In this document: positions 10,329 to 60,829 of the stretch, one piece after another
Position numbering within the stretch: position 1 is the stretch's first letter
Layout: the number at the start of each line of letters is the position of its first letter
Source: a virus
DNA: 64,000 nt
Virus record (IMG/VR): IMGVR_UViG_3300021599_002733
Strand: one strand, 5' to 3'
Program-made: the position numbers and the translations under genes
The notes under the pieces: model-generated
What the model was told of the DNA's origin: nothing
The model's input: the letters and a program-made list of their open reading frames with translations, nothing else
The model's database searches: none

Positions 10329-10355
10329 AAATTTGATTTTAATTATAGATTTGAT

Positions 10356-10895
10356 TTATTGTTCTCCACCCCCAATATATTCGCTAACGAAGAATTTAAG
10401 TGTGTTTCCAATTTGTGTTTCCAATTTTTCATTGTTCATTCCTTTAGCGATTTGAAGAGCATCCATTAGATTTTTCATTAATTCGCTTTCAGTACCTTCC
10501 ATGTTAGCTGCAATATCTTCTAAACCACCATCAGTTGTTGGAGTTTCTTCGGGCATATCACCTGGTAGGTCTTCTGTTTCAGTGTCTGTTACTTCAACGT
10601 CTTCAACTTCTTCTTCTTTTTTCTTTTTAGCTTCTTCAAGCTCATAGTCTTCTACAGGTTCATCTTCAAGATCACTAACGTGAGGGAAGTAATCTTTTTC
10701 TTCATCATCATAGTCCCCGTATATGTCTTCTTCCTCATAATCATAGTTATCTGGGTTGAGTTCAGTTAAGATCATTTCACGGATCTTAGAGCGAAGATCA
10801 CCTTCAGAAAGATTTTCTTTAGAGATTATAGGATTAAATTTTTCAAACGTTTTATTTTCGGTTAAAAATTTTCTTAAGTCAAAATTATCTGCCAT
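10356..10895 (-). CDS. Acidic late protein, probable head-internal/scaffold-like
   Basis: MADNFDLRKFLTE tag; D/E-rich. Confidence 0.5.
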   Translation of the reverse strand: MADNFDLRKFLTENKTFEKFNPIISKENLSEGDLRSKIREMILTELNPDNYDYEEEDIYGDYDDEEKDYFPHVSDLEDEPVEDYELEEAKKKKEEEVEDVEVTDTETEDLPGDMPEETPTTDGGLEDIAANMEGTESELMKNLMDALQIAKGMNNEKLETQIGNTLKFFVSEYIGGGEQ

Positions 10896-10896
10896 T

Positions 10897-11520
10897 TTAT
10901 TTTTTATTTGTTTGGTATAAATATTCGGAAAGTAGTGTTCCTATCACTCCTACTTTTTGTCTTAGGTAAATCCACTCATCTTTTTCCATATGGTGAGCAT
11001 CTTTAAACGATATCCCTAATATACCAATTACATGATTGTCTAAACTATGCAAGCTTATCATACAAATAGATTTTGTATCAAATTGGGTGGTGAATGGTTC
11101 TACACCATATGTTTCCTCACTTAATGTAGCATCAAATACAGTTAGTTCTCCGTTTTTATATATTTTAGAAAGTGCTTTTGGAAATAAAGAAACTGGTATA
11201 TTTTGGAATGTTGTCTGGATTGAAGGGATGTTTGGGGATGTTTTCTCATAGAATATAGAGAATTTTTGGATGGATCTACCCGTTGGGTAAAAATGACCTC
11301 CATTATGGAATTGAGCTATCCAAACTCTATCACACTCCAATTCATCTATCATATCCTCTAATTGATTGTCTATTAAAGTAGATGTTTCAAGAGCATCATG
11401 CATTGGAGTAGTTGCAGATTTCTTTTCCATTTTAATTTTAACCCAACTAACAATAATAGGGCCAAACACAGCAGTTATTAATGCTACTGTAACAGTTGTA
11501 AATACAGTTAATAGTTCCAT
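10897..11520 (-). CDS. Putative holin (N-terminal TM plus GAF-like domain, T4 gp t-like architecture)
   Basis: One N-terminal TM; RVWIAQFHNG...SIFYE...IGILGI. Confidence 0.55.
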   Translation of the reverse strand: MELLTVFTTVTVALITAVFGPIIVSWVKIKMEKKSATTPMHDALETSTLIDNQLEDMIDELECDRVWIAQFHNGGHFYPTGRSIQKFSIFYEKTSPNIPSIQTTFQNIPVSLFPKALSKIYKNGELTVFDATLSEETYGVEPFTTQFDTKSICMISLHSLDNHVIGILGISFKDAHHMEKDEWIYLRQKVGVIGTLLSEYLYQTNKK

Positions 11521-12089
11521 TACTTCTTTAAGTTTTCTAAATATGTTATTACTTCATTTAATGATTCCTCGGCACGTTCTCTATTAACAGAACCTACCCA
11601 TTTTTCGACTTCACCACTTTCAGTAACTGTACCTAGATTACTTTCTTCTAGTCTTTCTTTAAAGAAAACTTTATATTCTTCTATTGTTTGATCTATTTCT
11701 TTATTGTATGTGTCTTTAACATAATCTTCCCATTTTCCCTCAAGTTTGAGTTTGGTTTCAAATTCAGTTCGACAATCCAAACATGAACCATATGATTTAT
11801 AGTAGTGGGGATCCAATTGTTTATCCATTACACCTTTGCAAGAAGGACAAAATAAAGGAACAGATACTTTTTTAAATTTATCTAATTTAGTAATATTTTG
11901 TTTAATTCCATCTTTAATAGTCCAAGAACGACCATCTTCTTGCCATACATCACCTTCAACATGATCTGTTGTTTCTTGTGTATAACCTATACCATGGGTA
12001 ATTTTTTCTCCATTCTTACCCTTAACAAGGTTACGAATACGTTGAATATCCCTTTCGGAAAATTGCTTTTTTAAAACGTTATCTGACAT
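11520..12089 (-). CDS. Zn-finger hypothetical protein
   Basis: CPSC...CLDC. Confidence 0.55.
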   Translation of the reverse strand: MSDNVLKKQFSERDIQRIRNLVKGKNGEKITHGIGYTQETTDHVEGDVWQEDGRSWTIKDGIKQNITKLDKFKKVSVPLFCPSCKGVMDKQLDPHYYKSYGSCLDCRTEFETKLKLEGKWEDYVKDTYNKEIDQTIEEYKVFFKERLEESNLGTVTESGEVEKWVGSVNRERAEESLNEVITYLENLKK

Positions 12090-35570: not shown

Positions 35571-36044
35571 TTATTTGTATCTTTGACCTAACTCTAAAAT
35601 AGCCTCTTTAGCCTGTTCAATAGACATTTGAAAGAATTCCCTATCATTATTTACCCGATAATCCTTTAAATACTTATGAAGCTCAATCTCTAAAGCGTGA
35701 GCATTAAAGCATTTAAACGCGAATTCAACGTTAAACTTAACAGGTACGCCCGTTCCACGAGAAACCTGTTCTGCGCGTTTATCCGGTGTTTTTTCCGTAA
35801 AGCCTATTTTAACCAAATTTGGCATAGTTCTATTGGTTAATACATAAACCCAAGAATCACCATCACCTTCCCTATTTTCATACAGATTTTTCCTACGAGC
35901 AGTATAATACGTTACTTTATCCCATTCAGGTTTTTCAGAATCTGGTGTTAACGTATAAAAAGCTGGTTCTGATTTGGTAAAATCCTCTTCCACTGAAATA
36001 TAGGTGTGGGCTACGGATTCATCTATTCGTTTTATATTTGACAT
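35571..36044 (-). CDS. T5orf172/GIY-YIG domain protein
   Basis: VYVL.N..MPNLVKIGFT...R...TGVP...E..LH...REFF. Confidence 0.85.
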   Translation of the reverse strand: MSNIKRIDESVAHTYISVEEDFTKSEPAFYTLTPDSEKPEWDKVTYYTARRKNLYENREGDGDSWVYVLTNRTMPNLVKIGFTEKTPDKRAEQVSRGTGVPVKFNVEFAFKCFNAHALEIELHKYLKDYRVNNDREFFQMSIEQAKEAILELGQRYK

Positions 36045-37175: not shown

Positions 37176-37237
37176 GTGTTTTATCTTTAATTATGGTTTT
37201 AATATACGAACTTACCTCCATAAACCATATTCCATAG

Positions 37238-37306
37238 CCACCGAAAGCCCGGTTGCTCGGGCTCCAAGTGGAAGATAAACGGTTATGAAGCGTTGTCTTT
37301 TAATTG
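37238..37306 (-). ncRNA. Candidate antisense sRNA (UUCAUAACCGUUUAUCUU seed plus GC hairpin)
   Basis: Reverse complement of the array start motif; followed by the AGCCCG-agcaac-CGGGCT hairpin. Confidence 0.4.
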
Positions 37307-37409
37307 TGGTCAGGACAGGATTCGAACCTGTAACCCCTTATTTATTTGAGTGATTTCTAGAGGAGCTCTCTCACTTGGGGAGTGCGTCTACCAATTCCGC
37401 CACCTGACC
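37307..37409 (-). ncRNA. tRNA-like RNA (Leu-type D arm, intact acceptor stem and T arm) with non-canonical, enlarged anticodon/variable region
   Basis: GGTCAGG/CCTGACC-A acceptor; TGGCGGAATTGGTAGACGC; ACAGG-TTCGAAT-CCTGT; 103 nt. Confidence 0.75.
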
Positions 37410-37425
37410 ATATGTTGGGGGCTAT

Positions 37426-37797
37426 TTATTCTATACCACCATTGGCAGCTATTAATTCTACCAATTCAATGGATTCTGCCTCCACTTTAGCTTTAGCCGG
37501 GCGTCCACGCTTAACGGCTCCACCATTGGCTGCTGCTTTGGCTGCTAGTTCCGCTAATCGGATCTGTCTTACACTATCGGCTTTAACTGGTCGTCCAAGC
37601 TTAAGTTCACCATTGGCTTTTTTAGCCGCTAGTTCAGCTAGCCTTTGTTGTCTAACACTATCTGGATTAACTGGACGGCCTTGCTTACCCTCACCCGCTG
37701 CTTTTTTGGCTGCTAGTTCTGCCAAACGGATTTGACGAGCACTGTTTGAATTAACTGGACGACCTAATTTTGCTGTTTCTACATTTACATTTTTCAT
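37426..37797 (-). CDS. AT-hook-like (GRP) tandem-repeat protein
   Basis: Three repeats of about 28 aa (K.GRPV..DSVRQ.RLAELAAK) and a terminal KRGRP. Confidence 0.7.
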   Translation of the reverse strand: MKNVNVETAKLGRPVNSNSARQIRLAELAAKKAAGEGKQGRPVNPDSVRQQRLAELAAKKANGELKLGRPVKADSVRQIRLAELAAKAAANGGAVKRGRPAKAKVEAESIELVELIAANGGIE

Positions 37798-37817: not shown

Positions 37818-38012
37818 TTAATTATACTTTAATATACGAAATTGATTTATTATCTCTAAGTCCTTATTGTCTAATTGAATAAATTTGGTTTTGGTTTCTC
37901 CCTCAAACATAACTATCCAACGTTTATTACTACCGTCTTCCCTTAAGATACTACTTACTTTTTTCAAAAACTTAATTTCAATTAAGCTAATAACATTTTT
38001 TAAATCAACCAT
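37818..38012 (-). CDS. Hypothetical protein
   Basis: ORF track; its 3' end runs through the promoter repeat. Confidence 0.55.
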   Translation of the reverse strand: MVDLKNVISLIEIKFLKKVSSILREDGSNKRWIVMFEGETKTKFIQLDNKDLEIINQFRILKYN

Positions 38013-60014: not shown

Positions 60015-60015
60015 G

Positions 60016-60089
60016 TGGAGGATAACGGAGTCGAACCGTTGACCCCTTGCGTGCAAGGCAAGTGCTCTAGCCAGCTGAGCTAATCCCCC
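60016..60089 (-). tRNA. tRNA-Ala(TGC)
   Basis: GGGGGAT/ATCCTCC acceptor with G3:U70; loop CTTGCAC; GGTTCGACTCC. Confidence 0.95.
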
Positions 60090-60102
60090 TTTTATGGTCT
60101 TG

Positions 60103-60187
60103 CAGAGGATGAGAGATTCGAACTCCCGGTACCTTTCGGTACAACAGTTTTCAAGACTGCCGCAATCGACCACTCTGCCAATCCTCT
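60103..60187 (-). tRNA. tRNA-Ser(TGA)
   Basis: Loop CTTGAAA; long variable arm GTACC-GAAA-GGTAC; discriminator G. Confidence 0.95.
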
Positions 60188-60191
60188 AAAA

Positions 60192-60341
60192 TCAAACTTT
60201 GTTTATAGCGTAAACAGCAGCTTGTAGATGTGTGATAGCATCACTGAGATTTTTAGTTGGTGTTTCTTCATACTTCTGAGTGAGTTTCACTAGAGTAGTC
60301 TCTAGTGTTTTGATTTCAGATTGTATTTTTAACTTTTTCAT
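60192..60341 (-). CDS. Hypothetical protein (49 aa, not in track)
   Basis: MKKLKIQSEIKTLE...; late-type motif AATATGTATAA upstream. Confidence 0.5.
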   Translation of the reverse strand: MKKLKIQSEIKTLETTLVKLTQKYEETPTKNLSDAITHLQAAVYAINKV

Positions 60342-60389
60342 CTCGTTTATACATATTAAAAAAATGTAAGAGTTCTTAACGGGTTAATA

Positions 60390-60707
60390 TTATCCTTTAA
60401 GTACTTGTTTTGACGCTAATTTATCTAATCTAGAGTCAACGTAGCGTCTAGTTTCCTCTATTTGGTTCATTATGGTTTTTTCTACCATTGTGACATCTCG
60501 TCCACATTTTTCGAACTCCCTCCAAATATTTTGGTGCATTTCATCAATATGACGATGTATATCTTCTACATCACGCATGTAGTTGTTTTTAAATGTATGT
60601 AAATCTGAGTTTAACTTACTGATCTTAACCATACCCACAACAATAACAGATATAATAATTACTGCTACAATCGTAAGCATACCTAAAACGAATGATGTTA
60701 TTTCCAT
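60390..60707 (-). CDS. Membrane-anchored coiled-coil protein
   Basis: N-terminal TM; flanked by a 15-bp inverted repeat. Confidence 0.65.
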   Translation of the reverse strand: MEITSFVLGMLTIVAVIIISVIVVGMVKISKLNSDLHTFKNNYMRDVEDIHRHIDEMHQNIWREFEKCGRDVTMVEKTIMNQIEETRRYVDSRLDKLASKQVLKG

Positions 60708-60757
60708 GTTTTCTAGTTTTTAAAATGTCAAAGAACTCTTACATTATTTTATTTATG

Positions 60758-60829
60758 TATTCGGTACGGGGTTCGAACCCGTGCCTCCGCCGTGAAAGGG
60801 CGGCGTGTTAACCACTTCACTAACCGAAC
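60758..60829 (-). tRNA. tRNA-Glu(TTC)
   Basis: GTTCGGT/ACCGAAT acceptor; CCGCC-CTTTCAC-GGCGG; GGTTCGAACCC. Confidence 0.93.

Follow-up and report, generated by a model that had tools for sequence, protein, structure and literature searches.

The minus strand of the window, by which we mean the whole 64,000-nucleotide stretch of viral DNA analyzed here (IMG/VR virus record IMGVR_UViG_3300021599_002733), carries at positions 37307 to 37409 a tRNA-like element of 103 nt in which the acceptor stem, D arm and T arm of a leucine tRNA enclose a middle that does not form an anticodon arm. We favor the interpretation, with a probability of about 0.55, that the element specifies a non-decoding RNA which is built on a leucine-tRNA frame, would be cut out of its transcript in the manner of a tRNA, and carries the inserted middle as a payload. 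The anatomy of the element, the family to which it belongs, the structural selection acting on both the frame and the inserts of that family, and the tRNA-like flanks are direct observations of this study. Of the readings considered, the payload reading was chosen because it is the one best supported by the anatomy; readings of the element as a decoy, as processing punctuation, as a pseudogene, as a DNA-level site or as an intron-containing tRNA are ranked below it.

A leucine-tRNA frame around a non-tRNA middle

An earlier note on this DNA had described a perfect 7-bp acceptor stem, an A discriminator, a Leu-like D arm and a perfect T arm, and all of these are confirmed when the minus strand is read. 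The Rfam tRNA model (RF00005) aligns to the element over model positions 1-71 with 44.7 bits, compared with a gathering score of 29, and with an E value for the window of 2.8e-6, handling 42 nt as an insertion. The 5′ strand of the acceptor stem, GGTCAGG (37403-37409), pairs perfectly over 7 bp with the 3′ strand, CCTGACC (37308-37314). U8, G9 and a Leu-type D arm follow (37384-37402), the latter having a 3-bp stem, GCG/CGC, and a loop with A14, A15, G18, G19 and A20a. The D-arm sequence, GCGGAATTGGTAGACGC (37400-37384), is of the usual bacterial tRNA-Leu type, and its BLAST matches fall under annotated phage tRNA-Leu genes. The T arm (37315-37331) consists of ACAGG and CCTGT, perfectly paired around the loop TTCGAAT, and the discriminator, A73, is at 37307. 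Compared with canonical tRNA-Leu, the element has the acceptor stem, the discriminator, the D arm with G18G19 and the T arm with a TTCRANY loop, but it does not have the anticodon arm with its 5-bp stem, 7-nt loop, U33 and R37.

The place of the anticodon and variable arms is taken by an insert of 52 nt (37332-37383), the last U of which is a candidate for U48. This agrees with the earlier estimate of some 50 nt lacking a canonical anticodon loop: the sole candidate for a 5-bp anticodon stem, CTCCC/GAGAG, is interrupted by a C-A mismatch, and the loop it would close, CAAGTGA, puts an A rather than U33 at position 33. The 32 nt on the 3′ side of this candidate arm form no variable-arm hairpin in the minimum-free-energy fold. 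That fold instead turns the middle into one long irregular hairpin, with CCCC/GGGG as the closing helix and GTGA/TCAC as an inner helix, which is the same irregular stem that had been put forward as the alternative. ARAGORN, proposed at that time as a check, rejected the element, making no call there at default settings whether introns were allowed or not. The folding energy is unexceptional for the whole element (z = -1.27) and unremarkable for the insert (z about -1.0), so it is the covariance-model score and the family, rather than folding energy, that give the structure its significance. The predicted hairpin of the insert is without covariation support, since this insert has no relative and forms a singleton cluster.

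A family of elements in uncultured phages

Searches of IMG/VR recovered a family with the same design. A first pattern, in which 44-72 nt separate the Leu D arm from the T loop, matched at least 119 loci, and a second recovered copies with middles of 21-40 nt. A looser scan of the retrieved loci gave, among the matches listed, 143 elements that lack an anticodon and have inserts ranging from 20 to 133 nt. The exact 33-nt pattern from the 5′ part of the element had 0 matches in IMG/VR. The window element has the D arm and the T loop TTCGAAT searched for, the T stem of the family (ACAGG/CCTGT), which is outside the search patterns, and an insert (52 nt) within the family range. The inserts of 146 distinct elements, again among the matches listed, fall into 120 unrelated clusters.

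The frame is under structural selection. Across 71 members, pairing in the three helices reaches 99.4% and double changes occur at 9 of the 15 pairs, a result equaled by 0 of 500 shuffles; slid controls are paired in only 29-39% of cells. Within this set the acceptor helix is 98.8% paired, with double changes at 6 of its 7 pairs, and the T-arm helix is 100% paired. A14, A15, G18 and A20a do not vary at all, and U48 reaches at least 90% conservation. Because the family was gathered with exact-match patterns, the constancy of the D arm and T loop is partly built in; positions outside the search patterns are nevertheless still conserved or covarying. The acceptor stem AGTCAGG/CCTGACT is found in 55 of 104 distinct copies, and many of the others have fully compensated alternatives. 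The window acceptor is the G1-C72 variant of this stem, which is at least partly common to 7 of the 104. A73 is present in 79 of them (76%) and G73 in 13%. The model built from the family (R1) gives the window element 85.3 bits, a score that is not independent since the sequence is in the training alignment.

The inserts show selection as well. Among related inserts of the same cluster, 11 changes are compensatory, 9 are one-sided and only 2 pairs are broken, and the excess of compensatory over broken pairs argues that the inserts are folded RNA under selection and not filler. As a group, the family inserts fold only modestly better than shuffled sequences (mean z of -0.83). A permissive scan of 17 family loci found no match of the inserts to Rfam families other than tRNA; sub-threshold matches to YrlA and Plastid-ycf2 in that scan fall on real tRNAs.

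A single contig may hold up to five different copies of the element. Ordinary tRNAs lie within 500 nt of 48 elements, and for 72 there is none in the retrieved stretch. Genuine tRNA-Leu genes on the same contigs differ from the elements in acceptor stem, D arm and T arm, and 14 copies with short inserts are likewise not canonical tRNA-Leu. A search of the genomes of 185,579 species turned up a single copy of the exact frame, on a MAG contig of 7 kb, and this copy also bears an insert; the frame sequence is otherwise absent from the bacterial genomes searched. No family of neighboring proteins is common to more than 8 of about 125 loci, and with no conserved partner protein, the RNA seems not to rely on a dedicated protein encoded alongside it. 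We found no description of the family in the literature searched, which did not extend to the older T4 and T5 papers. Judged by its sequences, the family is phage-specific, large and largely undescribed.

These data bear on two statements of the earlier note. Its prediction of constant arms around a variable middle in the homologs is borne out by the pairing of the helices and the number of insert clusters. The possibility, which it had named as a refutation, that the homologs are ordinary tRNA-Leu and the window copy a one-off degenerate does not hold, as there are more than 140 elements and these are distinct from the tRNA-Leu genes that reside with them.

Two further features were seen at some of the family loci. 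T-arm-like hairpins (GGTTCGATTCC, GAGTTCGAATCTC and TGGTTCGACTCCA) lie within the inserts of elements at four loci (L056, L048, L097 and L011), as well as in RNA2 of phage T5, which suggests, from sequence, nested or duplicated tRNA modules. At another locus (L110), a full-length GOLLD RNA (259 bits; 10429-10853) is located about 570 nt from the family element (11426-11536) and directly adjoins another tRNA-like match (10345-10419).

tRNA-type ends and leucine identity

The flanks of the elements resemble those of tRNA genes. U occupies position -1 in 104 of 129 family members (81%), C74 is found in 95% and A76 in 82%, and position 75 is A or U, not C. The window element has U at -1, at the end of a 16-nt leader (37410-37425) that runs from the upstream stop codon, and A73 is followed by the trailer CAA (37304-37306), so that CCA is not encoded. 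The same trailer is found on the tRNA-Ala and tRNA-Ser of the window, and this common CAA suggests that the element would follow the same route of 3′ trimming and CCA addition as the phage tRNAs.

The identity of the frame raises the possibility of leucylation. The E. coli leucyl-tRNA synthetase (LeuRS) requires A73, A15-U48, G18G19, A20a and contacts in the D and T loops, and tRNA-Leu variants without both the anticodon and variable arms stay active (PMC9976931). The earlier note's statement that recognition of A73 and the elbow by LeuRS is largely independent of the anticodon accords with this review. At the level of sequence, every E. coli LeuRS identity nucleotide listed there is present in the element, namely A73, A15 with the candidate U48, G18G19, A20a, U54/A58 and C56. 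The nucleotides of the G18-U55, G19-C56 and U54-A58 pairs of minimal LeuRS substrates (Larkin et al. 2002, as summarized in PMC9976931) are present too. It is thus possible that the RNA is charged with leucine.

The element in its gene cassette

The element lies among small minus-strand ORFs, between the stop codon of one of them and a conserved hairpin. The three real tRNAs of the window were placed by ARAGORN at 60015-60829, about 22.6 kb away, in line with the description of a small-gene array some 23 kb from them. The window is from a myovirus-type phage, whose baseplate wedge protein has 45.6% identity with its counterpart in Flavobacterium phage immuto. Near and distant BLAST searches of 50,697 GenBank phages found no close relative of the region, only partial matches to tRNA-Leu D arms and T arms.

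The ORF immediately upstream (37426-37797, minus strand) encodes a protein of 123 aa with GRP/AELAAKKA repeats, and homologs of it occur on three other contigs (L120, L121 and L125). More exactly, the repeat unit GRPV-x-DSVRQ-x-RLAELAAKKA occurs in it three to four times and has AT-hook-like GRP motifs; the protein matched no Pfam or PHROG family. A promoter-like box, CGTATATT, precedes this ORF at 37838-37831 on the minus strand. There are 40 copies of the box on the minus (coding) strand between about 36431 and 57377 of the window, mostly ahead of small ORFs, and the boxes and small ORFs together look like an array of promoter-led cassettes. Downstream of the element, the conserved hairpin (37246-37263, minus strand) has the stem AGCCCG/CGGGCT, which in the counterpart on L121 is AGCCCC/GGGGCT, a compensatory change. 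The hairpin is predicted to end the transcription unit, and a terminator scan did not call it because its U tract is weak. In order, the cassette thus comprises the box (37838-37831), the ORF (37797-37426), the 16-nt spacer, the element, a trailer of ~45 nt and the hairpin (37263-37246), with the next box at 37208. Since it is flanked by a stop codon and a hairpin within a promoter-led cassette, transcription most likely includes the element as the 3′ end of the cassette, and co-transcription of the 123-aa ORF with the element is probable on this arrangement.

A single syntenic relative came to light, L121 (68-81% nucleotide identity over common genes). The ORF, trailer, hairpin and next promoter all recur there, but the element is absent. 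The ORF of L121 terminates in GCTTCATAA, and the identical sequence is found in the window directly 3′ of the element, where GCTTCATAACCG (37280-37291, minus strand) corresponds to the ORF end and stop codon of L121. Since the L121 cassette is complete without it, the element can be regarded as an accessory module, which may have been inserted in the window lineage or deleted from L121, the comparison itself giving no direction. The search with the neighboring ORF yielded two relatives in viral contigs (L120 and L121) and one in metagenome contigs (L125, on a contig that ends before the site), and none of these relatives provided an ortholog with the same insert.

Several other sequences near the element deserve mention. 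An 11-nt D-loop sequence, GAATTGGTAGA, at 37387-37397 is repeated 70 nt upstream at 37457-37467 (minus strand), where it lies within the tail of the upstream ORF and forms codons for ELVE. The window has these two copies and no others, compared with a chance expectation of about 0.03 in 128 kb, and the repeat may be a recombination scar from acquisition of the element. A gene for a T5orf172/MUG113-domain protein (GIY-YIG-like) lies 1.3 kb beyond the element on its downstream side (35571-36044, minus strand), and L121 has one too. In the trailer, positions 37280-37300 (minus strand) include a complement of GGTTATGAA, a start-region motif with 12 copies on the coding strand, and one of AAGATAAA, which has 26 sites. 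A role for this segment as a 21-nt antisense RNA against start regions was considered and rejected, the full 21-nt complement having no target in the window.

Known relatives and lookalikes

The closest annotated relative of the element is RNA1 of phage T5 (NC_005859, 30501-30644), annotated as 'tRNA-like stable RNA with unknown functions'. Like the element, it has the D-arm core CGGAATTGGTAGACG, a T arm and a closing helix of the acceptor type, and a large non-tRNA insert (about 85 nt) separates its D and T arms. The family model scores T5 RNA1 at 41.2 bits (E value of 5.5e-9), above the tRNA-Leu of T4 (36.1) and that of T5 (29.3). In contrast to the element, T5 RNA1 has a U-U mismatch in the acceptor helix, a discriminator U in the register of the model and the T loop TTCAACT; it also lies within the tRNA region of T5, whereas the window element is solitary.

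The T4 genes rnaC (species 1) and rnaD (species 2) specify phage-encoded stable small RNAs and adjoin tRNA genes. Both lack the Leu-type D arm of the element, although rnaC has a T-arm-like hairpin at its 3′ end. By the test with the family model they are not members, the match to rnaC being weak and partial (24.8 bits) and rnaD giving none. We know of no function established in decades for T4 species 1 and 2 or for T5 RNA1 and RNA2. The T4 RNAs, RNAC and RNAD, are expressed late, have been confirmed by Northern blot and have been described as 'of yet unknown functions' (PMC9697503).

Class II tRNA-Leu (RF00005) and the minimal LeuRS substrates share with the element the acceptor stem, A73, U8-A14, A15-U48, G18G19, A20a and the T loop. 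Class II tRNA-Leu differs in having an anticodon arm and a regular variable arm, both of which are absent from the element. Another non-decoding RNA with ends of this kind is tmRNA (SsrA), whose ends form a chargeable tRNA-like domain recognized by a synthetase that is independent of the anticodon. tmRNA is of the alanine type (G3-U70), has no true D stem, includes a tag ORF and pseudoknots, and is about 300 nt long. The element was rejected as a tmRNA, its 3-70 pair being U-A and there being no ARAGORN tmRNA call or Rfam match. It was likewise rejected as a mimic of YrlA or bacterial Y RNA (RF02553), to which there was no match at E values up to 1; the ends of YrlA make up the stem that binds Ro, and those of the element form a tRNA acceptor stem. 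A man-made parallel is the tRNA scaffold of Ponchon and Dardel from 2007, reportedly used for recombinant RNA and made of a tRNA body with the anticodon arm swapped for an RNA of interest. The architectural idea is the same, in that the product is processed and stabilized like a tRNA, but the element is natural and has a Leu frame.

By their baseplate proteins, the nearest cultured relatives of the phage are Flavobacterium phage immuto and Microcystis phage Mel-JY01, and neither has a family member. The family match in Mel-JY01 proved to be a normal tRNA-Leu(UAA). In immuto, an 84-nt sequence (NC_055915.1, 20247-20330; L143) located about 0.3 kb upstream of the tRNA cluster has a good acceptor stem and T arm, no recognizable D or anticodon arm, an R1 score of 24.7 bits and no ARAGORN call.

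A model for the RNA and its alternatives

In the payload model, transcription, processing, stability, payload function and charging are what we infer from the sequence. The RNA would be transcribed as the 3′ part of the upstream cassette, from the box at 37838 through the ORF (37797-37426) and the element to the hairpin at 37263-37246. The tRNA machinery of the cell would then excise it as it would the phage's own tRNAs, with RNase P generating the 5′ end, trimming of CAA at the 3′ end and addition of CCA. Interaction of the D and T loops would produce a normal tRNA elbow and hence a stable, L-shaped handle, from which the 52-nt hairpin would project in place of the anticodon and variable arms as the specific payload, a module for binding or pairing. 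Such an RNA would be incapable of reading codons. Leucylation would also be possible, as all of the E. coli LeuRS nucleotides are kept. Within the 64-kb window no antisense target of the insert rose above chance, the longest match of 11 nt being the mode for shuffled inserts. This result counts against the model, as do the failure of the inserts to match any Rfam family, the singleton status and unremarkable folding energy of the window insert, and the only modest folding of the family inserts as a group.

A related possibility, to which we assign a clearly smaller but still appreciable chance, is that the frame is kept for charging by LeuRS or for binding to LeuRS, EF-Tu, the CCA-adding enzyme or defense toxins that attack acceptor ends, and that the insert serves mainly to bar the RNA from use by the ribosome. 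LeuRS is among the few synthetases that ignore the anticodon, which would explain why a Leu frame was recruited. A decoy of this kind would be expected to have the E. coli LeuRS determinants that the element carries and could dispense with the anticodon and variable arms as active tRNA-Leu variants do (PMC9976931), and the invariance of A14, A15, G18 and A20a in 71 members, together with U48 at 90% or more, is consistent with it. A73, however, is found in only 76% of the family, with 13% having G73, which is an antideterminant for E. coli LeuRS in the context of tRNA-Ser (PMC9976931), and the Leu-specific nucleotides could be a mere inheritance from an ancestral tRNA-Leu. Moreover, a decoy has no need of 120 unrelated inserts under structural selection or of arrays of different copies. 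The decoy and payload readings overlap in part, and the diversity of the inserts, the selection on their structure and the arrays fit a payload better than a pure decoy. We find improbable a role as processing punctuation, in which the tRNA shape would be only a site for RNase P and RNase Z that splits the mRNA from its 3′ hairpin and frees a trailer sRNA of ~60 nt, the insert being irrelevant. The position of the element, exactly between the cassette stop codon and the conserved hairpin, suits this role, as do the complementarity of the trailer to the 12 coding-strand copies of the start-region motif and an approximately twofold excess of 8-mer complementarity between trailer and window (122 versus 59 ± 20 for shuffled sequences). 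The enrichment is not significant for 9-mers (26 versus 14 ± 8), though, and L121 has the same trailer and hairpin without the element. Other members of the family occur in arrays or beside tRNAs and not in mRNA 3′ UTRs, and the selection on inserts would be left unexplained.

Functionless remains of a tRNA gene, whether a decaying tRNA-Leu pseudogene or a gene wrecked by an insertion, might be rejected by ARAGORN, missing from a close relative (L121), and endowed with a singleton insert of unexceptional stability, all of which is true of the element. Decay would strike the arms too, whereas here every arm is perfect and the middle is wholly non-tRNA; more than 140 relatives have the same pattern together with covariation, and the frame is unlike that of any co-resident or bacterial tRNA-Leu. 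We therefore hold this explanation to be quite improbable. Less probable again is an element that acts at the level of DNA, with the constant halves serving as recombination or homing targets or as an attachment-site mimic, and the variable middle being incidental. Unrelated inserts between identical halves do resemble the outcome of cassette exchange, and the presence/absence difference from L121, the copy of the 11-nt D-loop sequence 70 nt upstream and the T5orf172-domain gene 1.3 kb away could be accommodated. The acceptor stem and the inserts, however, both show compensatory changes, which point to selection on an RNA fold, and the elements have beside them no integrase and no nuclease family that recurs across loci. 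Recombination between the halves may well spread inserts, but this would explain their movement and not their function. The reading that we judge very improbable is a functional tRNA from which an intron in the middle is spliced to leave a normal anticodon arm, an outcome that the earlier note had listed as a refutation of its own view. The insert is located at the usual place of tRNA introns, and ARAGORN with lowered thresholds proposes a Glu(ctc) tRNA with a 14-nt intron, a model in which the stems are mismatched and the intron position is non-canonical. Every possible single excision was then examined for a 5-bp stem containing no more than one mismatch, an in-register U33 and R37 and a class I or class II variable region, and there were zero solutions. 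ARAGORN called some tRNA in 58% of 1098 single-deletion variants, a test that does not discriminate, since 149-652 were called with shuffled middles. There was no match to a group I or other intron in Rfam, and the inserts of the rest of the family are equally non-tRNA. At 52 nt, the insert is far below the size of a group I intron.

Implications

The payload model can be taken a step further, although we offer this version as a speculation with a low chance of being correct. The elements may constitute a modular phage RNA platform, in which a constant, leucylated Leu frame is combined with interchangeable structured inserts that act as specificity domains. If so, the RNA would be more than a stabilized small RNA: a charged, non-ribosomal adaptor that could carry leucine or an acyl-RNA end to whichever partner the insert selects. 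Such a platform could also act as a sponge for host toxins that attack the acceptor ends of tRNAs.

The family shows that the type of RNA represented by T5 RNA1 is not the oddity of one model phage but a widespread design in uncultured phages. One consequence is that phage tRNA counts obtained with Rfam-type tools are inflated by non-decoding genes. The old question posed by the small stable RNAs of T4 and T5 is now testable through charging, the partners of the inserts, and counter-defense against systems directed at tRNA. Nature may have reached the tRNA-scaffold trick of RNA engineering in phages of this kind.
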